From a virus, in IMG/VR virus record IMGVR_UViG_3300029787_000021, positions 9,432-73,431 of that record: 64,000 nt of DNA; one strand, given 5' to 3'. Positions 9,327 through 54,813 of the stretch are shown here, in pieces. A program made the translations under genes and the position numbers. The notes beneath the pieces were generated by a model. The model searched no databases. It was not told the origin of the DNA and saw nothing but the letters and a program-made list of their open reading frames with translations. Position 1 is the first letter of the stretch; each line of letters begins with the position of its first letter.

Positions 9327-9765
9327 ATACGTCGATCATTTTTAACTTACCTGATTTAGGGTGTTGCATAACGTTATCTCCTATAAAGTCAAGTTCTTCA
9401 GGATCGATACCTAATCTCTTTGCTTCTTTTTCAGTAGCTTCAATCCATTCTTCCGGAATATTTTGATTTAGAGGTGCAAGTACTTCCATAGTTATAATGC
9501 CTAATTTACTATGTATGGTTTCAACGTCATAAATAAAAGCAAAATTATTTGTTTTTTTTCCTTTAAGTTTTTGTGCATGTTCAAGTTCTACTGAGTCTGT
9601 AGTAACTTTTACGGCTTTACCGTTCAATAAGAATACTGTTCCATAATCTCCACTAGGTTTATCACTAATATATACTCCACCTTGGTCTTTAATTTTATCA
9701 ACCTCAGCTTCAAAATCAGGATCATACTGAAGTACTTCTCCTAATGTGATTCTAGTTGTTTTCAT
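9325..9765 (-). CDS. Minimal protein-kinase-like (APH/PKL fold) protein
   Basis: SGDYGTV Gly-loop, AVKVT, helix-C Glu, ITME hinge, LDFIGDNVM catalytic loop, terminal MIDV. Confidence 0.7.
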   Translation of the reverse strand: MKTTRITLGEVLQYDPDFEAEVDKIKDQGGVYISDKPSGDYGTVFLLNGKAVKVTTDSVELEHAQKLKGKKTNNFAFIYDVETIHSKLGIITMEVLAPLNQNIPEEWIEATEKEAKRLGIDPEELDFIGDNVMQHPKSGKLKMIDV

Positions 9766-16957: not shown

Positions 16958-18552
16958 TACTTAATATTGTGTGTTAGGATTCCGTTTGCATAATAAACGT
17001 CATCTGTTTCTACATTTAATTTATATACAGCTCCATTATACGATTCTTCTATTATGGATGTTATTTCAATTTCTTCTCCTGCAGCATTCATAAACTTATC
17101 TCCAAGCTGTAGTTCAGTAGCATATTTAATTATCCACTCACTACCTCTTTTTACTATATGTAAATGAGCTTTAGTAGTTTTTAATAAACCGTTATTAAAG
17201 TTCCATACATACTCTGGGTTTGATGATGTATTGTTTATTACTTCAGCCTCTGTAGCTGTTCCGTCTATACTTTCGTTAGACCATGCTCTTAAAGTATCAG
17301 CATTATCTGAATCTACTAATGTAGGAATATTTTTAGATAAAATTTTATCTCCTACTGATAGGTTTTCTACTGCTGTTGTTGTTCCATCTGCTTTTGTAAT
17401 CATAGTTCCTGCTACAACGCATAAATCTTGACAATCAGCTGCTGATGATACGTATCCGTAAGTACTTATCGTAAGTGCATCCCCAATACCAGTTCCGAAT
17501 CGTAATGCATAATAACCTGATGATAAATATCCGGTACCGGTTGCAGAAGTATATATTCTATCTCCTTGTACAGGATTAGTTCCAGAACCATCATGATAAT
17601 ATGTAGAATAAGATCCTCCATTACAAGCAGCTAATAAAGTTCCTCCAGAAAACATTTGTACAGCAGTTCTTACGATCGGTGATCTAGTAGGTGTTACAGT
17701 AGGTGATGGTGTTGCACTAGGTGATGGAGTACTACTAACTGATACACTAGGAGTTACTGATGGAGTAACGGATGGTGTTACTGACTTACTAGGAGTTTTA
17801 CTCGGTGTTACAGAAGGTGTGCTCTGTGGTGTTACAGATACCGAAGGCGTTTTACTCGGTGTTACTGACGGAGTAATAGAAGGTGTTGATGATACACCTG
17901 GTGTAGAACTTACCGTAATAGATGGTGTAATTGATGGAGTAACAGATACACTTGGTGTTTTACTTGGAGTAACGCTAGGGGTTACTGATGGTGTAACTGA
18001 TGGAGTAACAGAAGCACTAGGTGTTTTAGATGGTGTAGCTGATGGTGTTTTTGTTGGTGTTATTGACACACTAGGTGTTTTACTTGGAGTAATAGATACC
18101 GAAGGGGTAACTGATACTGATGGGGTAGCTGAAGGTGTAACTGATACAGAAGGAGTTGGTGGTATAAAATTAAAGTTATTTGTACACTCGTTTACACTTC
18201 TAAATATAAAAGTATTTACTCCTTGCCCTGAGGTTAGCGTAACTCCTCCGTTTAAATCATCTTTACCTAATACATTTTTATAAGTAGTACTGTTTAAAGT
18301 AACACTTCCTGTTAAAAGAGAAGTACCAGTATACTCATCTACTATATCTGCATATTCACCATTAGCTGATGCTGTATAGTCCCAGCCTCCTCCAGTTTCT
18401 GCAGCTGCATTAGGTCCTAAAATTTTATTTGCTTGAATTTCGGAGTTACAATATACAAAGAAAGGACCTGCATCCTGAATAGCACCTTGAGTACTACCGG
18501 TTGGGGTATCTTTAAATCCTATTACCTTATATTGAAATCCTAAAAAGCCCAT
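16957..18552 (-). CDS. Tail-module protein: Pro/Ser/Thr stalk, small Cys domain, C-terminal Hint domain
   Basis: VTPS repeats; Hint from CVVAGTMI (codon at 17421) to YYANGILTHN-IK. Confidence 0.8.
   Translation of the reverse strand: MGFLGFQYKVIGFKDTPTGSTQGAIQDAGPFFVYCNSEIQANKILGPNAAAETGGGWDYTASANGEYADIVDEYTGTSLLTGSVTLNSTTYKNVLGKDDLNGGVTLTSGQGVNTFIFRSVNECTNNFNFIPPTPSVSVTPSATPSVSVTPSVSITPSKTPSVSITPTKTPSATPSKTPSASVTPSVTPSVTPSVTPSKTPSVSVTPSITPSITVSSTPGVSSTPSITPSVTPSKTPSVSVTPQSTPSVTPSKTPSKSVTPSVTPSVTPSVSVSSTPSPSATPSPTVTPTRSPIVRTAVQMFSGGTLLAACNGGSYSTYYHDGSGTNPVQGDRIYTSATGTGYLSSGYYALRFGTGIGDALTISTYGYVSSAADCQDLCVVAGTMITKADGTTTAVENLSVGDKILSKNIPTLVDSDNADTLRAWSNESIDGTATEAEVINNTSSNPEYVWNFNNGLLKTTKAHLHIVKRGSEWIIKYATELQLGDKFMNAAGEEIEITSIIEESYNGAVYKLNVETDDVYYANGILTHNIK
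17690..18160 (-). repeat. Coding tandem repeat (S-V/A/I/K-T-P)n
   Basis: Degenerate 12-nt repeats such as gatggtgttact and ggagtaacaga. Confidence 0.9.
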
Positions 18553-32338: not shown

Positions 32339-32371
32339 TAAATATACGAACTTTCCGGCAGATTTCCAACT
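32339..32371 (-). promoter_or_regulatory. Early/middle promoter
   Basis: AGTTG-N16-TTCG-TATATTTA. Confidence 0.85.
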
Positions 32372-35004: not shown

Positions 35005-35037
35005 TAAATATACGAACTTTTCTGGTAAGATCCAACT
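35005..35037 (-). promoter_or_regulatory. Early/middle promoter
   Basis: AGTTG-N16-TTCG-TATATTTA. Confidence 0.85.
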
Positions 35038-40696: not shown

Positions 40697-40729
40697 TAAA
40701 TATACGAATTTTTTTCCAGAATTCCAACT
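40697..40729 (-). promoter_or_regulatory. Early/middle promoter
   Basis: AGTTG-N16-TTCG-TATATTTA. Confidence 0.85.
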
Positions 40730-40743
40730 GTTTAAGGGGTTAT

Positions 40744-41556
40744 TTACCCAACCATATTTAATGGTTGAGTATGTAACCAACCTACATTTCTATTAGTATT
40801 TAAACTAAAGAATAAAGCATCCATTTGACCACCTCTACGGTTCTTCGAGAAGAAGAAAGCTCTTCCTTCGTCCATAAACTTCATATGAGCCATACCAGTC
40901 ATCATATGCTTAAACCTATTCGATCCAGCAAACTCACCCATTTTAGTAACCTGCTGAATAACAAGGAAAGCAGTATTTACTTTACCTAAGTTCTCAGCTT
41001 TATTATGCTTTTCTAAAAGATTCAATACTTCAGTCTCAGCTCTTTTTACTGACATATTAGTATGAAAGTCTGAAATAGCACCTACAACCTCAGCCATAGA
41101 ATCAATTAATACAACATCCCATCCTTCAGTTAAAATACTTTTAAGAATTATTAATGGATCTTTTTCGATAAAATCACCCATAAATAAAATACTTAAATCA
41201 CCAAATTTAGGGAATCTTTTAACATATCCATGCATATCAATTCTATTCATCTCACCAGAAATAAATAAAGTCTTTTTGCCTCTAGTATTAAGATCTGAAA
41301 GTATATCTAACATAACAGTAGATTTACCAACTCCAGGATCTCCTACGATAGCATAGTTAGTACCTTTCATTAAACCACCTTCAGCAGAAAATAAACTATC
41401 TATTTTTTTACCAGTAGGCATAGGGATAAATAAGTTTTTATCAAACTTAATATCATTCATTTTAACAGTAGAAGGTCTCCAAGTTCTGAAAGAACCAGTA
41501 TTAATAGATTTTTCTACTCTTTTTTTAGTAACGGAATTTTTAACTGTAATATTCAT
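40744..41556 (-). CDS. RecA-fold ATPase (RadA/Sms-like core)
   Basis: GDPGVGKST, FISGEM, VLIDS, QVTKMGEFAGS, KNRRG. Confidence 0.8.
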   Translation of the reverse strand: MNITVKNSVTKKRVEKSINTGSFRTWRPSTVKMNDIKFDKNLFIPMPTGKKIDSLFSAEGGLMKGTNYAIVGDPGVGKSTVMLDILSDLNTRGKKTLFISGEMNRIDMHGYVKRFPKFGDLSILFMGDFIEKDPLIILKSILTEGWDVVLIDSMAEVVGAISDFHTNMSVKRAETEVLNLLEKHNKAENLGKVNTAFLVIQQVTKMGEFAGSNRFKHMMTGMAHMKFMDEGRAFFFSKNRRGGQMDALFFSLNTNRNVGWLHTQPLNMVG

Positions 41557-41582
41557 AACCTTTATTGCTTTATTATTATACC

Positions 41583-41615
41583 TTAATATATGAAGAATTT
41601 TCCGGAATAGCAACT
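41583..41615 (-). promoter_or_regulatory. Early/middle promoter overlapped by TTCCGGAA palindromes
   Basis: AGTTG-N16-TTCA-TATATTAA. Confidence 0.75.
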
Positions 41616-41642
41616 TTTTTACTAGTTATTTCCGGAAAAATA

Positions 41643-41819
41643 CTAAATTTCTCCGTATTCAATCAAAATAGTAACAAAAGCTAAGTGTATTTTAATAGTA
41701 ACATAGTTACATAATTTATCGGCTTGAATTACTTCATAACCTAGAATTAAACCTTCGTGAGGCCATCTAAAGTTAAGTGCTAATTCCCAAAAACTATTAT
41801 CATCAAAATTTAAACTCAT
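41643..41819 (-). CDS. Small beta-hairpin-like protein (58 aa), similar to 33889
   Basis: ...WPHEGLILGYEVI...TIKIHLAFVTILIEYGEI; not in the ORF track. Confidence 0.65.
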   Translation of the reverse strand: MSLNFDDNSFWELALNFRWPHEGLILGYEVIQADKLCNYVTIKIHLAFVTILIEYGEI

Positions 41820-42136
41820 AATTTTTCTTTTACTTCTTTAATATGTTTACAATTTCTATGAGCAATATAACCCCAACAGCTACAACTAAGCTCATTTCTA
41901 GCATTATATCTTACGATATATTCTTCACCAGATCTAGCTGATATAAACTTCCAGACCTTCTCTTCTTTCTCTTCGAATAACTCCTCGAAGGGTTTCTTTT
42001 CCATAATTATATCTTCGAAAGAAGTATCTTCTTCTACAACCGTCCAGGAAGGAACATGATACCGGACGCCGGAGGAGACGGTTATGAATCCTCCGATTCC
42101 GACGTTTGATCTCGGTACCAAATAGGTCTTACGCAT
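41816..42136 (-). CDS. SWIM zinc-finger protein
   Basis: CSCWG...CKHI. Confidence 0.8.
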   Translation of the reverse strand: MRKTYLVPRSNVGIGGFITVSSGVRYHVPSWTVVEEDTSFEDIIMEKKPFEELFEEKEEKVWKFISARSGEEYIVRYNARNELSCSCWGYIAHRNCKHIKEVKEKL

Positions 42137-43016
42137 CTACAGTCCAGGAATGACTATTATACGAGCCTATCAAAGCATCTTCCAATTTAGATATTCTAAT
42201 TTTATCTAGAACATCTTCTCTAGTATGATTTTCATACTTATCAGTTTCTGAGTTCCATCTTCTAATAATCTTCTCTACTTTAAGAGAACAAGATTTACCT
42301 GAGTAAGACATATGAACTATTTTAGCTTTTTTAATTCCACTAACATACCAGTCATATCTTACTTGAACGCTAAATCCATCTTCACGAGTAATATTGATAC
42401 CTTTTTTCAGATCTGAGATCATATTATCTCTTTTGTAATTATCTCTATCAGTTTTTACTTCTTCAATTTCTCTTCTATATTTAACAATCTTCTCAGTAAG
42501 CTTTCTTCCTTTACCACTATATTTCTTTTCACAGGTATTAAGATCAGCTAAGATATCATCTTTAAAATCTTTAATAGTCATAGCAATTTGACCATTAAAC
42601 ATAAACCTTTCTAAATTTTTATCTGAGTATTTATCGCTAGTAGAATAAGTGCTTATACCAATATCAGTATATTCTTTTCCTTTATCTTCATTAGAGGAAT
42701 TAGTATAGATAGTACATAATTCATAACTTCTATATTTAATTACTTTATCATAATCTTCTTTTTCTTCATTCCAAACTTCTTTTTCAAATTTATCACCTCT
42801 ACAAGAAATAGTAAGATAATCGACACCTCCAGAATAATCAAGACCTTCTAAATTAGTTTCGATACCTTCAGTACCTTCAAAATAAGATAATAAAATATCT
42901 TTCATCTCTTTCTCTTGAGAATTCCAATATTCTTTTCTTTGATCTTCTAATTTTTCTTTTGCTTTTCTAAGTTTATCCTCTTTAGAATCAAGAGCTTCAA
43001 AAATGTATTTAGACAT
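42129..43016 (-). CDS. Hypothetical early protein
   Basis: 295 aa following promoter 43044-43076. Confidence 0.7.
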   Translation of the reverse strand: MSKYIFEALDSKEDKLRKAKEKLEDQRKEYWNSQEKEMKDILLSYFEGTEGIETNLEGLDYSGGVDYLTISCRGDKFEKEVWNEEKEDYDKVIKYRSYELCTIYTNSSNEDKGKEYTDIGISTYSTSDKYSDKNLERFMFNGQIAMTIKDFKDDILADLNTCEKKYSGKGRKLTEKIVKYRREIEEVKTDRDNYKRDNMISDLKKGINITREDGFSVQVRYDWYVSGIKKAKIVHMSYSGKSCSLKVEKIIRRWNSETDKYENHTREDVLDKIRISKLEDALIGSYNSHSWTVDA

Positions 43017-43043
43017 AACCTTTATTTTAAAATTTATATACTA

Positions 43044-43076
43044 TAAATATACGAACTTTTATTCAGACTTCCAACT
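43044..43076 (-). promoter_or_regulatory. Early/middle promoter
   Basis: AGTTG-N16-TTCG-TATATTTA. Confidence 0.85.
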
Positions 43077-43110
43077 GTTCCCCCAAGTATTTTAGGAGGA
43101 ACTGGAAGTT

Positions 43111-43258
43111 TAGCATTCCCGGCAGGACTCGAACCTGCGACCTCTTTAACCCATTTGCTTTTCACGATCGTATCTATTACGAGTTTCACTTTTACGTATA
43201 AGTTACTCCTCCGCGCCTGGTTAAGCTAAAGCGAGCTACCTACTGCTCTACGGGACAT
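43111..43258 (-). ncRNA. tRNA-like RNA with about 70-nt insertion in the anticodon arm
   Basis: Acceptor TCCCG/CGGGA, D-arm GAGC-AGTAGGTA-GCTC, stem CTTTA/TAAAG enclosing 78 nt, variable loop AGGTC, T-arm GCAGG-TTCGAGT-CCTGC. Confidence 0.75.
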
Positions 43259-43261
43259 CTA

Positions 43262-43294
43262 TCAATATACGAATAAAAACTCATTTAAACAACT
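43262..43294 (-). promoter_or_regulatory. Early/middle promoter driving the tRNA-like RNA
   Basis: AGTTG-N16-TTCG-TATATTGA ending a few nt before the RNA 5' end. Confidence 0.8.
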
Positions 43295-43433
43295 TTCTCC
43301 TATGTTTTTTTAAGTGAGTCTAAAGCTATTTATTATACACAGCGATACCTCCGATAGACCTCGCTATTCTATCCCCACAGTTCCCTTAAAATTTTATCGA
43401 AGTTACTTATAACTAACATTTAAACTTTATTAT

Positions 43434-43667
43434 ATGGATTTTTTAAAGAAAGTTGGCGATTGGGCTAACACATTAACTGAAATTGGTATTTCTTTTATTG
43501 CTCTTGGAGTAGTAATTGAAGTATTATTTAAAGGAGCAGTAATACCTTTCTGGCCTGAAGTATCTGTAGTAGAAAATATTATGGGTATTCTTGGATCATT
43601 AAGTAACGAAGGACTACTAGGACTAGTAGGAGCATTCGTCCTTTATCATATTCTTAAAAAGAAATAA
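43434..43667 (+). CDS. Small two-TM membrane protein
   Basis: 77 aa, own plus-strand late motif (43326) and terminator. Confidence 0.8.
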   Translation: MDFLKKVGDWANTLTEIGISFIALGVVIEVLFKGAVIPFWPEVSVVENIMGILGSLSNEGLLGLVGAFVLYHILKKK

Positions 43668-43688
43668 GAATATATAATTAATGACAGT

Positions 43689-43715
43689 AAGAGGTCCTTC
43701 GGGGCCTCTTTTTTT
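43689..43715 (+). terminator. Rho-independent terminator (possibly bidirectional)
   Basis: AAGAGGTCC-TTCG-GGGCCTCTT followed by a T run, between convergent genes. Confidence 0.85.
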
Positions 43716-44430
43716 ATCCAAATATCTCTATTCTAATATCTTCTTGCATTTTATAACCTAAATCATCTAAGTAACCTTTTCCTTCTTCAATCATTTTAGT
43801 CCATCCACAATAGTATATTAATGGTTTCTTATCAGCTGTTGCAAGTTCTGGTAAGTAAGCTGTATGAACATATCCATTATGTCCTTCCCATTTTTCTTGA
43901 GATAAACAAGGAACATATTCGAAGTTAGGTATTCTTTTTTCTAATTCTAACATTTCTTCGTAGTAACAAATATCAGCTTTAGTTCTGGTACCGAAGAATA
44001 GTTTTAACTTTTTAGTAGGTACTTTATTATCTGCTATATAATTTAACATAGATCTAAAAGGACTTATCCCAGAACCTGTACTTACAAAATATATATCTCT
44101 ATCAATTACCTCAGGTAAAGTAAATATCCCCATAGGTCCTCTATACATTACTTCATCTCCTACCTTAGCTCTATTAAAAAGATAGTCACACATTTTACCT
44201 CCTATAAGATTAGTAACTATTATTTCTAATTTATTAGAACCATCAGGCCAAGAAGATAAAGAATAGTTTCTAGCTATTACTTCATTAGGATCATTAGGAT
44301 CTTTTATAGCTAATTGTATTAATTGCCCTGGTATATAATTTATTTTATCATAAAGAGGGTTCTCTATTATAAATCTCCAGTTTTTATCAGTTTCTTTTAT
44401 TATTTCGGTAATTACTCCTAATTCATTCAT
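43714..44430 (-). CDS. FAD/NAD(P)-binding oxidoreductase (ferredoxin reductase-like)
   Basis: RNYSLSS, GPMGIF, STGSGISPF, YYCG. Confidence 0.9.
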   Translation of the reverse strand: MNELGVITEIIKETDKNWRFIIENPLYDKINYIPGQLIQLAIKDPNDPNEVIARNYSLSSWPDGSNKLEIIVTNLIGGKMCDYLFNRAKVGDEVMYRGPMGIFTLPEVIDRDIYFVSTGSGISPFRSMLNYIADNKVPTKKLKLFFGTRTKADICYYEEMLELEKRIPNFEYVPCLSQEKWEGHNGYVHTAYLPELATADKKPLIYYCGWTKMIEEGKGYLDDLGYKMQEDIRIEIFG

Positions 44431-44620
44431 CTTTAAATAATTCTTGTATCCATGTTACTATAAATACCAAAAGAGAGTACGGCCAAGTACTCATTTGGTA
44501 GTATCTTTCATAATTGCTAAAAGGTCCTCCAATTCCATGTTTATTACAAAATCGTTCTAACCATAATGCCCATAAACAACCACATATTATATATAAAGAT
44601 ATATATTGTATTATTTCCAT
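44423..44620 (-). CDS. Small membrane protein
   Basis: Two hydrophobic segments. Confidence 0.6.
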   Translation of the reverse strand: MEIIQYISLYIICGCLWALWLERFCNKHGIGGPFSNYERYYQMSTWPYSLLVFIVTWIQELFKDE

Positions 44621-44621
44621 T

Positions 44622-44780
44622 TTATCTAGGGTTTGGTACTAATCTAAAAGTACAGGCTGGTCTACCATTTATTATAGGCATACCAAATTCATCATACTCT
44701 ATTGTCTTTACTTTAGTTCTTTTATTTTTAAAACGACCTACCATTATAGTATCGCCTACTTTAACATTTATTTTAATCAT
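44622..44780 (-). CDS. Small phage protein (52 aa)
   Basis: MIKINVKVGDTIMVGRFKNK...GMPIINGR; fills the gap. Confidence 0.7.
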   Translation of the reverse strand: MIKINVKVGDTIMVGRFKNKRTKVKTIEYDEFGMPIINGRPACTFRLVPNPR

Positions 44781-45568
44781 AATAATTTTGTATAAGTACT
44801 TAAATCTTTATTTTCTTTATCTTTAATTAGGCATTTTTTACCCCAGAGTTCTTTATTATCTAAATCAATAAAGAATTTATATGTAAAATCTGATTTAAAT
44901 ATATTAGCAGGCATAGTCATGCACCAAGAGTCTTCTCCTTTAGGTATTTGTATAAATAACGACATAAACTTTTTCTTAGCCAAATGAGCTGCTAATAAAC
45001 TATGAGCTGAACCTTGAAATAAATCAAAAGGTCTATCGATTAAAGGTGCTCCCATTTGACCATACTTCATAAAAGACCAATACTGTTCAGGATAAAATTG
45101 ATCTGACCATGCTATATTATCATACATATTATCATCTTTCCATTGATAATCCTTTGGGTATAAATCTCTTACTAACTCAGGATATTTTTTATCATATTGT
45201 ACTTTCTTATCATATAATTCTGAAGCAGTTAAATTATCTATATCTAATTCTTCACAGAATTGCTTTAGTATTTTATAATTCATATGACCATATGGAGTAG
45301 ATCTAACTTCATCTATAAAAAAACTTATAGGAAAATTAATATAAACTAAGTTACTATTTAAAGGGGTCATCCTAACCTGAGATTGCATTTGATATCTTAT
45401 TTTAGGTTCTTTACCATTTTGAAGAATAAAAGTTTCTCTAAAGTTATTTGGATTTACCTCAGTAGTAACTTTATCAAATCCTTTTTTGATCATCTTAACG
45501 ACTTCATTCTCAACTAAAACATATTCATATGCTCTAACAATATCAAAACTAATTAAAGTATCTATCAT
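44777..45568 (-). CDS. Hypothetical protein
   Basis: ORF track, 263 aa. Confidence 0.65.
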   Translation of the reverse strand: MIDTLISFDIVRAYEYVLVENEVVKMIKKGFDKVTTEVNPNNFRETFILQNGKEPKIRYQMQSQVRMTPLNSNLVYINFPISFFIDEVRSTPYGHMNYKILKQFCEELDIDNLTASELYDKKVQYDKKYPELVRDLYPKDYQWKDDNMYDNIAWSDQFYPEQYWSFMKYGQMGAPLIDRPFDLFQGSAHSLLAAHLAKKKFMSLFIQIPKGEDSWCMTMPANIFKSDFTYKFFIDLDNKELWGKKCLIKDKENKDLSTYTKLL

Positions 45569-48691: not shown

Positions 48692-50956
48692 TTATTTATT
48701 GTGAACTATAATACCATTGGCAACATAATTGTGATATTCTTTTACTGTAAAATTGAATACTCTTTGATCTGGTTTAGAATCTATAACATCTATTGAAGAA
48801 ATAGCTTTCCATTCTCCGCAACAATTTATCTCATCTCCAGGTTCTAATATACTAAACTCTTCTACATCTGGTTTTAAAGCTTTCCAACCCTGTTTAGTAA
48901 GGAAAGGATGCTCTGGTGTAAATTCAATATTACATATTCCTTCTCCATTAATAGTATATAAATCTCTATCTCCTACTACTGTTGGTTCGATATCTATTAC
49001 TTTACTTACTACCAACTCTTCTCCGTTCCAAGATAATACTTCATCACCAATTACTATATCTTCTATATTTTTTATATCTTCATTAGCTAAACTAATTTCA
49101 GTACCTTCTACGAAACAACAACCAAAACCTCCTGGAGGAACTCTGTTATGAACTAAAAATCCATTAGCATAAAAATTATTATTATCAGCAACTTCATCTA
49201 AATTATATACTGTTTCATTATGAGGATTTTCTTCAATAAATGTAAGTTCATAAAAATTACCATCGTGATTTAAACATTTATCTCCTACAACTAAAGCTCG
49301 ATCTGCAATATTACTTTCAGCTGGTTTATATGCTGACCATCCGCTTCCACTTACATAAAATGGATGATCGAAAGTACAAGTATTAAAATTATCGTTAGAA
49401 AATTCTAAATAAACTACAGGTTGATTATGTTTAGTTTGAATTTGAGTAACTTCTCTTTCCTCTTGTTGTTCTGAGTCTAAATTATAAGTTAATACTGTAT
49501 CACTAATTGCAATATCTTCTATATTTTTAATTAAAGGAACTTCTCCATTACTTAAAGTAATCTTAGTCCCAGCTACAAAACAAGGAGCATTATGTACTAA
49601 AAAGTTAGATCCAGATAATTGATAATTATCATCATCTTCAACATTAATTTGTCTATAACCAGCAGCAGTTGTAGTTACTCCAGTATATCCTTCAGTTACA
49701 GCTTCAAACCCACTACCAGATACCCAAACTGAATGAGTATTAGGAAAGATATTTTGAGCATATTCCCATTCTACTCTATCAATCACTGCATTATAAACTA
49801 AATATGCTTCATTAGGAGAAGTGTATCCAGTTGCATTTGCTGTTTTAATCTCACTAATAATATTATTACTAGCTGATATTTCATAAGAAGATAAAACTAA
49901 AGATCCAGTAGCATGAGAACCATCAGGTAATTGATTTCCTGAGTGACTCCACTCGTACCAGTCTTGATTATCTTCAGGTGATCCACTAACAAAGTATGAT
50001 AATACTGCATTAGAAGCTGATACATCTTTAGCTAAAATAAAATCACCAGACATGCTAATTAAACTTTCACCATAAGGCCATACTCCATAAGTTCTTTCAG
50101 TCATATGATTGGTAGCAAAACAAAACTTATAGTATGTTTCCAATTCACTACTAATATTTGCAGTATTAAAATCGTTTAAACTTTCTGGTTCATCAAAATA
50201 AGCTCCTACTTTATAGTTACCTATAGATACTTGATCTAAATTAGCACCGTAAACAAAAGTAAAATTTCTAATAGAAGTTACTTTATCTCCTTGCTTCTCA
50301 CTAGAATTATAATGATAGTTCTGAATCATTGAATCCTCATTTTTAACTTCATTTATAAAATTATTCCATCTATCAGAAGAACCTGAAGTTGCATGACCAA
50401 TTTTATACATTTTCATAGTCTGATGAGCTTCAGTTGCTTTTTTAGTAACTGCATCAATAATATTATCTGGGTTTAGATTAGATTTATCTATATGGTCTAT
50501 AACTCCAGTTGCTGAGGATGAATAGTAGAATTCAGTAACTTGATCTTCAGCAGAGTTATCACTAAATAACTTAAGTAGGTTAAGTTTACCTTTTGCATAA
50601 GTAGAATCTAATACTGCATTTTCATCATAAGCTAATCTAATAATAAATTTATTATCAGCATCTGAAGGTGAAGTAGGATAAATACTATCTATTTTTTCTG
50701 CTACTGCTGTGAAAGAATGACTATGAGCTGATGCTACAGATGACGATAAATACTCAACGAATTTGTCATGATAAGCATCTTTATATATTACATATACTGA
50801 ATCTATACTCCCAGTCATCATTGATACTATAGGAGTTACATCAACTTCGTTTCCTAAACTAGAGTTAATAAATGAAGTATCGGTATTTATTTCTAATAAC
50901 CTTATGTTATTTGATTCATCAACACAGAAGTCTGATGAGAAAATAGTTCCTTTCAT
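48692..50956 (-). CDS. Circularly permuted ATP-grasp-like domain fused to three tandem Hint domains
   Basis: N-terminal DFCVD..IRLLEINT, later VTKK, MIQNY, SIRNFTFV; three HN-terminated Hint units (50086-49589, 49582-49145, 49117-48698). Confidence 0.75.
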   Translation of the reverse strand: MKGTIFSSDFCVDESNNIRLLEINTDTSFINSSLGNEVDVTPIVSMMTGSIDSVYVIYKDAYHDKFVEYLSSSVASAHSHSFTAVAEKIDSIYPTSPSDADNKFIIRLAYDENAVLDSTYAKGKLNLLKLFSDNSAEDQVTEFYYSSSATGVIDHIDKSNLNPDNIIDAVTKKATEAHQTMKMYKIGHATSGSSDRWNNFINEVKNEDSMIQNYHYNSSEKQGDKVTSIRNFTFVYGANLDQVSIGNYKVGAYFDEPESLNDFNTANISSELETYYKFCFATNHMTERTYGVWPYGESLISMSGDFILAKDVSASNAVLSYFVSGSPEDNQDWYEWSHSGNQLPDGSHATGSLVLSSYEISASNNIISEIKTANATGYTSPNEAYLVYNAVIDRVEWEYAQNIFPNTHSVWVSGSGFEAVTEGYTGVTTTAAGYRQINVEDDDNYQLSGSNFLVHNAPCFVAGTKITLSNGEVPLIKNIEDIAISDTVLTYNLDSEQQEEREVTQIQTKHNQPVVYLEFSNDNFNTCTFDHPFYVSGSGWSAYKPAESNIADRALVVGDKCLNHDGNFYELTFIEENPHNETVYNLDEVADNNNFYANGFLVHNRVPPGGFGCCFVEGTEISLANEDIKNIEDIVIGDEVLSWNGEELVVSKVIDIEPTVVGDRDLYTINGEGICNIEFTPEHPFLTKQGWKALKPDVEEFSILEPGDEINCCGEWKAISSIDVIDSKPDQRVFNFTVKEYHNYVANGIIVHNK

Positions 50957-52611: not shown

Positions 52612-52644
52612 TAAATATACGAAAAAAAACTCGGGTAGGCAACT
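52612..52644 (-). promoter_or_regulatory. Early/middle promoter
   Basis: AGTTG-N16-TTCG-TATATTTA. Confidence 0.85.
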
Positions 52645-52954: not shown

Positions 52955-52987
52955 TAAATATACGAACTAACCATCAATAAACCAACT
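52955..52987 (-). promoter_or_regulatory. Early/middle promoter
   Basis: AGTTG-N16-TTCG-TATATTTA. Confidence 0.8.
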
Positions 52988-54780: not shown

Positions 54781-54813
54781 TAAATATACGAACTTTTATG
54801 CAGAAATCCAACT
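54781..54813 (-). promoter_or_regulatory. Early/middle promoter
   Basis: AGTTG-N16-TTCG-TATATTTA. Confidence 0.85.

Follow-up and report, generated by a model that had tools for sequence, protein, structure and literature searches.

A tRNA-shaped RNA gene in a marine viral genome

The viral record IMGVR_UViG_3300029787_000021 comprises 73,431 bp, with a completeness estimated at 44% by CheckV. The stretch analysed here, hereafter designated as the window, spans positions 9,432 to 73,431 of this record (64,000 nt); it has a G+C content of ~30%, and its minus strand carries nearly all the genes. On this strand, at 43257-43113, a complete cloverleaf can be read from the sequence, in which the anticodon loop is replaced by a long structured insert. 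This element, in which tRNA position 1 corresponds to 43257, is the subject of the present analysis. Its parts are as follows.

43113..43257, minus strand: tRNA-shaped RNA gene (145 nt), starting at position 1 and including one base after the discriminator, as delimited by ARAGORN -i
43251..43257, minus strand: 5' strand of the acceptor stem, TGTCCCG, with its partner CGGGAAT at 43115-43121
43233..43248, minus strand: D arm of the initiator-tRNA type, GAGC-AGTAGGTA-GCTC
43226..43231, minus strand: 5' strand of the anticodon stem, CTTTA plus G, with its partner T plus TAAAG at 43144-43149 (6 bp)
43221..43225, minus strand: 5-nt bulge CTTAA, a remnant of the anticodon loop, conserved in relatives
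43151..43220, minus strand: insert of 70 nt, closed by helix P-a (CCA 43220-43218 / TGG 43153-43151)
43181..43211, minus strand: hairpin H1 of the insert, outer GAG/CTC, inner ACTT/AAGT, loop ATACGTAA
43154..43180, minus strand: near-invariant core GTAATAGATACGATCGTGAAAAGCAAA with the palindrome CGATCG, defined by conservation
43122..43143, minus strand: variable loop AGGTC (43143-43139) and T arm GCAGG-TTCGAGT-CCTGC (43138-43122)
43110..43114, minus strand: discriminator G and tail CTAA, with no encoded CCA

Most of this architecture had been noticed in an original prediction made from the sequence alone. The D arm, the AGGTC variable loop and the T arm that it described are all present on the minus strand at 43257-43113, and the coordinates bear out that CTTTA (43231-43227) and TAAAG (43148-43144) enclose 78 nt. 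U8 and A9 lie between the acceptor and the D arm. The imperfect acceptor top and the non-CCA end were also read correctly: pairs 1-72 (T.T) and 2-71 (G.A) are mismatched, and the tail is G-CTAA. The extended anticodon stem that had been proposed stands for one additional pair, but neither a continuous 10-bp stem nor the alternative TTAACC/GGTTAA pairing is conserved in relatives; beyond the sixth pair are the 5-nt bulge CTTAA and then the separate helix CCA/TGG. Instead of a 7-nt anticodon loop on a 5-bp stem, the element thus has a 6-bp stem, a 5-nt bulge and a 70-nt insert with its own helix. Within the insert, the suggested GAGT...ACTC hairpin exists, although its covarying register differs (GAG/CTC outer, ACTT/AAGT inner). 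The other suggested hairpin, TCGTA-ATAGA-TACGA, had to be abandoned: double-sided changes occur at none of its pairs, and the two innermost pairs fail to form in 39/54 and 39/70 sequences.

Most standard settings overlook this gene. By default, ARAGORN reported no tRNA in the whole 64-kb window, and its search for transfer-messenger RNA (tmRNA) in the window returned no match; with introns allowed, a check that the prediction had advised, the program called c[43113,43257] as a tRNA with a 69-nt intron. The Rfam check advised at the same time matched the element to no known family at gathering score. In a sensitive Rfam scan of 42800-43600, the tRNA model RF00005 gave 17 bits (gathering cut-off 29 bits) and the Y-RNA-like model RF02553 gave 14.8 bits (E = 5.8; cut-off 69 bits) over the aligned stretch 43042-43161, while a short relative of the element, with an insert of type C (see below), scored 33.7 bits with RF00005. 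The family described below is missed by default ARAGORN and by Rfam gathering scores, and ARAGORN detects it only when introns are allowed. The family model R1 recognised the element with 157.6 bits (E = 4.5e-36), as its sole match in the window. Since the folding energy of the element is ordinary (z = -0.17), the case rests on comparison, namely on 83 homologues and on their covariation.

A large family confined to viral and metagenomic contigs

Homologues of the element amount to 83 distinct variants, found only in marine viral and metagenomic contigs. Family counts are given as distinct sequences (n=83) and not as contigs, because a given piece of DNA is in some cases recorded both as a viral and as a metagenome contig. 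When viral contigs were searched for the D arm and T loop separated by a long gap, 39 loci were obtained, 20 of which were homologues with a conserved insert and the others mostly neighbouring tRNA pairs. The D arm followed by the loop start CTTAAC occurred at 26 viral loci, all with the element (26/26), and in 95 stretches of metagenome contigs; it was found in none of the prokaryotes searched (one genome per species, 185,579 species). Searching viral contigs with the insert-core pattern yielded 29 loci, 28 of them inside the tRNA body, including variants with other D stems, and one in an unrelated coding stretch. Among 50,697 cultured-phage records, blastn found T-arm pieces only, and 0/60 matching records covered 80% of the element. 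The nearest cultured relative of the window virus, Flavobacterium phage immuto, was identified by its baseplate protein (57% amino-acid identity); from this we infer a marine host within the Flavobacteriia. Literature searches yielded no description of an RNA of this kind, which is not proof of absence.

Three insert types were distinguished.

Type A (that of the window): 66-70 nt, 55 distinct variants
Type B: about 63 nt, 11 distinct variants
Type C: about 38 nt, 17 distinct variants

A single acceptor and T-arm class (AAAAGGG...CCCTTAT) bears inserts of types A, B and C. In one family member, L123:74-216, the acceptor consists of AAAAGGG on the 5' side and of CTGGGAA, from another class, on the 3' side, only 2/7 pairs being formed; recombination or chimeric assembly may account for it. 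L002 and L003, the sequences most closely related to the window, share about 90% identity with it over 3 kb and have the D stem GTTC/GAAC. Ordinary tRNAs are few in element-bearing phages, with 0 to 2 per record: in one complete genome (G003) the element is accompanied only by tRNA-Arg and tRNA-Ala, and two partial records contain it without any tRNA.

The stretch is present in marine metagenome runs; in one DNA run, 29/30 depth bins were covered, including the element, with contigs of 90-99% identity. Three RNA libraries among 22 public runs contained 6-7% of the words of a 3.5-kb stretch. RNA-library contigs on 41500-45000 covered only 42070-43134, a 151-nt contig reaching 43134, short of the element body, and no contig linked the two sides of the insert.

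Covariation supports the tRNA arms and the insert helices

To assess covariation, the 72 sequences of types A and C were aligned. Standard pairs were found in 92.5% of cells versus 80.8% in shuffles (n=500), and 25 pairs changed on both sides versus 17.1 in shuffles, a value reached by 0/500 of them. Sliding the 3' partners by one to three columns reduced pairing to 33-54%. Pairing was complete (100% of cells) in P-a and in the D, anticodon and T stems. The D-stem variants GAGC/GCTC, GTTC/GAAC and CCTC/GAGG all keep the stem, 5/6 pairs of the anticodon stem and 3/5 pairs of the T stem change on both sides, and the sixth anticodon-stem pair is G.U in 62 sequences, A-U in 7 and C-G in 1. Acceptor pairs 3-70 to 7-66 covary in the family, while a mismatch among the top three pairs occurs in 82/83 variants, a single one being fully paired. 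The non-pair is at 1-72 only in 39 variants, at 2-71 only in 32 and in other combinations in 11 (n=83); counted by position, pair 1-72 is unpaired in 49/83, and a further 33 have the break at 2-71. Also invariant in the 72 sequences are U8, A14, G15, G18, G19, A21 and the T loop GGTTCGAGTCC. The element is therefore a tRNA cloverleaf with its tertiary nucleotides, in which all four stems covary.

Conservation extends beyond the tRNA body. The bulge reads CTTAA in 80/83 variants, CTAAA in 2/83 and TTTATAA in 1/83. The check for covariation among homologues, also advised beforehand, came out positive for the insert helices P-a and H1. The first pair of P-a is always C-G and the next two covary, with U-A in 41 and C-G in 29 sequences at columns 41/111 and four pair types at columns 42/110; in type B inserts, P-a extends to 10 bp. 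The outer pair of H1 (columns 49/81) is A-U in 23, G-C in 20 and G.U in 6 sequences, its inner pairs covary too, and the hairpin is present in type A and absent from the 17 type C variants. Types A and C have in common the near-invariant core (G)TAATA..ACGATCGTGAAAAGCAAA, whose columns CGATCGT, AAA, G and A do not vary in the 72 sequences. A helix proposed within the insert, P-b (CGCG/CGTG), displayed no covariation in these 72 sequences. Overall, the pattern of covariation supports every tRNA arm, the sixth anticodon-stem pair, P-a and the insert hairpin, and by this comparative evidence the element is clearly under selection.

Derivation from a phage initiator tRNA gene

The D arm GAGCAGTAGGTAGCTC and the T loop GGTTCGAGTCC also occur together in 30 viral tRNA genes of normal length. 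All 30 insert-less genes are tRNA-Met with the loop CTCATAA and a 1-72 mismatch, and most end in a tail of the form A-C(T/A)A. At these 30 viral loci (L229-L258), which encode initiator-type tRNA-Met, the discriminator is mostly followed by CTA or CAA and not by CCA. Tails of the form R-C(T/A)A-A are found on ordinary phage initiator tRNAs and on tRNA-Gln beside homologues of the element as well.

Genome position points in the same direction. A complete 191-kb relative (G006) is without the element, and ARAGORN with introns allowed finds only two ordinary tRNAs in it. One of its genes, an initiator-type tRNA-Met(CAU), lies exactly where another relative (L067) has the element, with collinear flanking genes on both sides. 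This tRNA-Met has A1.A72, three G-C pairs, the anticodon stem TCGGG/CCCGA and the tail ACTAA. Yet another locus (L055) has such a tRNA-Met and a type B element in tandem, the latter immediately downstream.

The element retains the D arm, T loop and open acceptor top of the initiator type. Its anticodon CAU is absent: the remnant of the loop reads CTTAA, CTAAA or TTTATAA, and no junction restores a CAT. The three G-C pairs of the anticodon stem are absent as well, the stem being CTTTA/TAAAG in the window and CTTTG/CAAAG in most relatives. These comparisons show that the element derives from a phage initiator tRNA-Met gene and that, relative to this parent tRNA, CAU and the G-C pairs were lost and an insert was gained. 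Because of the shared D arm and T loop, the acceptor mismatch, the synteny between G006 and L067 and the L055 tandem, the element is regarded as a duplicate of, or a replacement for, the phage initiator tRNA gene. The origin of the family can thus be traced to its parent gene, which in some genomes it replaces at the same position; the original prediction had not recognised this descent.

A possible mimic of the initiator tRNA

The element is most likely a tRNA look-alike RNA that does not decode, rather than a decoding tRNA. The original prediction had left a choice between mimicry of a tRNA and a non-canonical intron within one. This pair of readings is supported in part, and the balance leans towards a mimic: CAU and the G-C pairs are lost, the bulge varies, three unrelated-looking inserts occur on one body, group I and bulge-helix-bulge features are absent from the insert, and a spliced-type loop was found in 0/30 insert-less relatives. 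As a tentative best explanation, we propose an unspliced mimic of the initiator tRNA that would be matured like a tRNA and bind a host factor. This reading was preferred because the tRNA body, the open acceptor end and the bulge are the constant parts of the family, one body being combined with three insert types, and because a working initiator tRNA occupies the same site in one lineage.

According to this proposal, a phage initiator tRNA-Met gene would have given rise to a stable, non-decoding RNA in which the whole L-shaped body is kept, while the bulge CUUAA, helix P-a and a compact 38-70-nt domain stand in place of the anticodon loop. This RNA would be produced from its own promoter near position 1, or co-transcribed with a preceding tRNA or queC, and would be trimmed by the enzymes that mature tRNAs and escape splicing. 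It would be unable to read AUG and, because its acceptor end is open, should stay out of elongation. Its effect would be to occupy a host factor that recognises the initiator tRNA. A candidate target is a defence or toxin nuclease cutting the initiator tRNA in its anticodon stem-loop; the insert would bury the cut site, which for VapC we take to be 38/39, where the insert begins, and would add a binding surface. Phages may then have evolved two answers to one pressure, either replacing a destroyed host initiator tRNA or blocking the enzyme that destroys it. That the RNA acts as a decoy for an initiator-tRNA nuclease is a guess, and a doubtful one. VapC toxins are described as inactivating the initiator tRNA by a single cut in its anticodon stem-loop (PMC4705866), and a phage tRNA as neutralising the tRNA-cutting PARIS defence (PMC11464382).

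Several observations weigh against the mimic. A decoy would be expected to keep the anticodon loop by which the tRNA is recognised, and this loop is largely gone. In types A and C the 27-nt core barely varies, which suggests that the function may reside in the insert instead of the tRNA body. Moreover, joining CTTAA to the two G's just before the 3' strand of the 6-bp stem produces a 7-nt loop, CUUAAGG, in 80/83 variants; the same junction yields U33 and a purine at 37 in 82/83, two of which read CUAAAGG.

The second of these points is the basis of a somewhat unlikely rival explanation: the tRNA body would be a scaffold for processing and stability, and the insert would be the functional part, as an aptamer binding a protein or a small molecule or as a module dimerising through its palindrome. 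The 27-nt core is almost invariant in 72 sequences and confined to this tRNA body (28/29 core-pattern matches). In addition, every insert type contains a 6-nt palindrome, CGATCG in A and C and ATGCAT or GTGCAC in B, and the two type B palindromes differ by a change at both ends that leaves the palindrome intact. Yet a 6-nt palindrome is expected by chance about once per insert of such size, and its covariation amounts to a single event. Homodimers predicted for type C arms use the palindrome, with an energy gain of -12 to -13 kcal/mol versus -7 (standard deviation 2.5-2.8) in shuffles, whereas the dimer energies of types A and B are within about one standard deviation of shuffles; the homodimer prediction is weak overall, and suggestive for type C only. 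Three different inserts on the same body and at the same genome position would be odd for one specific aptamer, and a mere scaffold needs no conserved acceptor mismatch, D loop or bulge.

Besides tRNA genes, phages are known to encode some tRNA-like stable RNAs that are unexplained; the present family is large and well conserved. The question for experiment is which role a look-alike of the start tRNA that does not decode plays during infection. Candidate roles include an RNA-based counter-defence directed at toxins that cut tRNAs and a novel mode of tRNA processing.

A possible intron in the anticodon loop

A split tRNA gene, the other half of the original prediction, is an unlikely alternative, and one that the 7-nt loop mentioned above brings to the fore. 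In this reading, the insert would be a novel sort of intron whose removal depends on an endonuclease and a ligase, of phage or host origin, or on self-catalysis, and the product would have an initiator-type body, the loop CUUAAGG and the anticodon UAA. ARAGORN, when introns are allowed, does call the element an intron-bearing tRNA, and constant flanks with variable inserts on one body are the pattern of exons and introns. Interruptions are also present in other phage initiator-type tRNA genes, which bear short inserts beside an intact CAT.

The products that such splicing would generate speak against it. With the junction on the 6-bp stem, the anticodon would be UAA in 80 variants and AAA in 2, and one variant (L183) would have a 9-nt loop; variants with CTAAA or TTTATAA would therefore yield other anticodons or a 9-nt loop. 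When 7-nt loops are formed on the homologous 5-bp stem instead, position 33 is not U in 82/83 variants, counting every junction that leaves two or more loop bases on the 5' side. The product would combine a 6-bp anticodon stem and an open acceptor top with no anticodon usable by methionyl-tRNA synthetase (MetRS), and none of the 30 insert-less relatives has a spliced-type loop, all 30 carrying CAU.

Nor does the insert resemble an intron of a known class. Group I introns, with their conserved P3-P9 core, measure roughly 200 nt at their smallest. As the original prediction had argued, the insert (38-70 nt) is too short for such an intron, and it had no match to the group I models of Rfam at E up to 10. 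A bulge-helix-bulge motif consists of two 3-nt bulges separated by 4 bp; in the element, a 5-nt and a 1-nt bulge face each other with no 4-bp helix between them. Finally, two distinct conserved cores, one in types A and C and the other in type B, are unlikely to share one catalytic mechanism.

Inserts in viral initiator-type tRNA genes were also seen at loci with no sequence relation to this family. The same sequence in L264:292-388 and L274 has a 23-nt insert right after CAT, L266:289-378 has a 16-nt insert before CAT, and L270:292-409 has an insert of 44-51 nt in the anticodon loop. Interrupted phage initiator tRNA genes may hence be a wider phenomenon. It seems quite improbable that the insert represents a new class of small tRNA introns, neither group I nor bulge-helix-bulge, shared in principle with these loci. 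Were this true, intron removal would create an initiator-bodied tRNA with the anticodon UAA, that is, a switchable tRNA for non-standard starts or decoding.

Transcription and genomic context

Upstream and downstream of the RNA gene, the following features were recorded.

43264..43294, minus strand: phage promoter motif, AGTTGT (43294-43289), 15 nt, then TTCGTATATT (43273-43264); it ends 6 nt before position 1
32341-32350, 35007-35016, 40699-40708, 43046-43055, 43264-43273, 52614-52623, 52957-52966 and 54783-54792, minus strand: copies of TTCGTATATT
43067..43109, minus strand: long hairpin directly 3' of the RNA, 7 + 8 bp (interrupted), from the predicted fold

The window contains 8 copies of TTCGTATATT, all on the minus (coding) strand, where 0.34 would be expected, and AGTTG(G/T/C) lies 15 nt upstream in 8/8 copies. 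The consensus promoter announced by the original prediction is thus partly upheld: a motif does end 6 nt upstream of the element, but it is not a good sigma-70 consensus, the window having a phage-specific AGTTGN-15 nt-TTCGTATATT, and a sigma-70 promoter scan did not call the motif upstream of the element. We take this bipartite motif to be unlike the Bacteroidota promoter consensus. Transcription would start almost at position 1, judging from the place of the motif.

In 27/78 non-redundant homologous contexts, a promoter-type motif ends 6-10 nt upstream of the element; 6/78 contexts directly follow a tRNA, and 19/78 are without a motif, many of these a few bases after the queC stop codon. Among viral loci, 8/26 have the element 1-10 nt after a tRNA-Gln or tRNA-Met. 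QueC immediately precedes the element or the tRNA cluster in 12/27 loci (L053-L078), and likewise in MW353175.1 (18607-21325). In immuto, which has no element, QueC is beside the tRNA cluster and is accompanied by DpdA, QueD, QueE, QueF and FolE, which complete a full 7-deazaguanine set for DNA modification. QueC is absent from the 73-kb record of the window, and five element-bearing records gave no Pfam TGT match. A functional link to 7-deazaguanine genes was considered and rejected, the association being read as synteny of the tRNA cluster, as the window record is without QueC and immuto without the element.

The hairpin at 43067-43109 is retained in the close relatives L002 and L003, and the AGTTGG box of the promoter that follows lies in its 3' strand. 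A terminator scan did not call it, a T run being absent; the fold of the whole 213-nt stretch including this hairpin has z = -2.03. The reverse complement of the conserved core, examined as a possible antisense target, had no other match in the window at <=3 mismatches.

A gene usually starts 10-25 nt downstream of the element, and in many loci the element stands 6-10 nt after the queC stop without a promoter motif. Both features would suit a module acting in cis, either as a tRNA-like mark recruiting RNase P so that the neighbouring mRNA is freed or stabilised, or as a regulator of the following gene. We nevertheless consider this role improbable: the downstream genes belong to at least four unrelated families, the next gene in the window has its own copy of the promoter motif, and a punctuation signal needs no conserved structured insert. 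Least credible is a decaying tRNA pseudogene hit by an insertion, which would account for the imperfect acceptor top and for the failure of default ARAGORN and the Rfam gathering score, and which is refuted, as far as comparative data allow, by 83 variants with compensatory changes in all arms and insert helices and by retention of the element where ordinary tRNAs are absent.

Comparison with known tRNA-like RNAs

By descent, the element is closest to phage initiator tRNAs. Like phage initiator tRNA-Met(CAU), it has the D arm GAGCAGTAGGTAGCTC, the T loop TTCGAGT, the variable loop AGGTC, a mismatch at the acceptor top, a tail of the A-C(T/A)A kind and, in a related phage, the same genome position. 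Unlike these tRNAs, it is without CAU and without the three G-C pairs, in place of the 7-nt loop there are a 5-nt bulge, a helix and a domain of 38-70 nt, and in 32/83 variants the mismatch is at 2-71 instead of 1-72.

In kind, the closest parallel is the species 1 RNA of phage T4 (rnaC), with no detectable homology. Similar in size to the element and likewise encoded by a phage beside tRNA genes, this 139-nt RNA has a T arm and an imperfect stem resembling an acceptor, which enclose a large structured middle part. In contrast to the element, it has neither D arm nor anticodon stem, and its middle consists of two long hairpins. The model R1, searched against T4, matched six tRNAs of the same region and gave no match to rnaC and rnaD at E up to 1. 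GenBank describes rnaC only as a 'small, stable RNA', and to our knowledge no function has been assigned to the T4 species 1 and 2 RNAs for about fifty years.

As with the group I introns of bacterial tRNAs, the anticodon loop of a bacterial-type tRNA is interrupted in the element, and the remnant CUUAA of this loop resembles the loop of cyanobacterial tRNA-Leu(UAA). Compared with group I introns of tRNA-Leu(UAA) and tRNA-fMet, however, the insert is 3-6 times too short and has no Rfam match, and the 5-nt variable loop of the element is not of the tRNA-Leu type. YrlA (RF02553) is also a non-coding mimic of the tRNA elbow, occurring in bacteria and phages. Its topology is opposite to that of the element, which reaches only 14.8 bits with the YrlA model against a cut-off of 69: the ends of YrlA lie in a long stem, and its acceptor is closed by a loop. 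As the original prediction had pointed out, the element differs from tmRNA in having a D stem; it also has an anticodon stem, and the ARAGORN tmRNA search was empty. Lastly, the report on T5 tRNA-Lys and PARIS (PMC11464382) describes a phage tRNA gene valued for its relation to a host nuclease and not for codon supply, as proposed here; T5 tRNA-Lys is a working, cleavage-resistant tRNA, whereas the element cannot decode and its link to a nuclease is one that we infer.

Other features of the window

Five minus-strand genes (43016, 41556, 40672, 32321 and 3965) start within the fixed context AAGGTTATG, mostly AAAGGTTATG. Several of them are located just downstream of the promoter motif, and AGG and ATG are two bases apart in this context. 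The GGTTATG stretch is complementary to CAUAACC of an initiator tRNA anticodon arm. A start context AGGTTAAG was found nowhere on the coding strand of the window.

On the opposite strand to its neighbours, an open reading frame at 43434-43667 (plus strand) encodes a hydrophobic product of 77 aa. It ends at a GC-rich hairpin, GAGGCCCCGAAGGACCTC, located at about 43680-43705, which could terminate both convergent genes. Two large proteins encoded on the minus strand (48692-50956 and 16960-18552) contain domains of the Hint or intein type: the first has C-terminal matches to intein splicing and homing-endonuclease Hint domains, and the second has a weak PT-HINT match.

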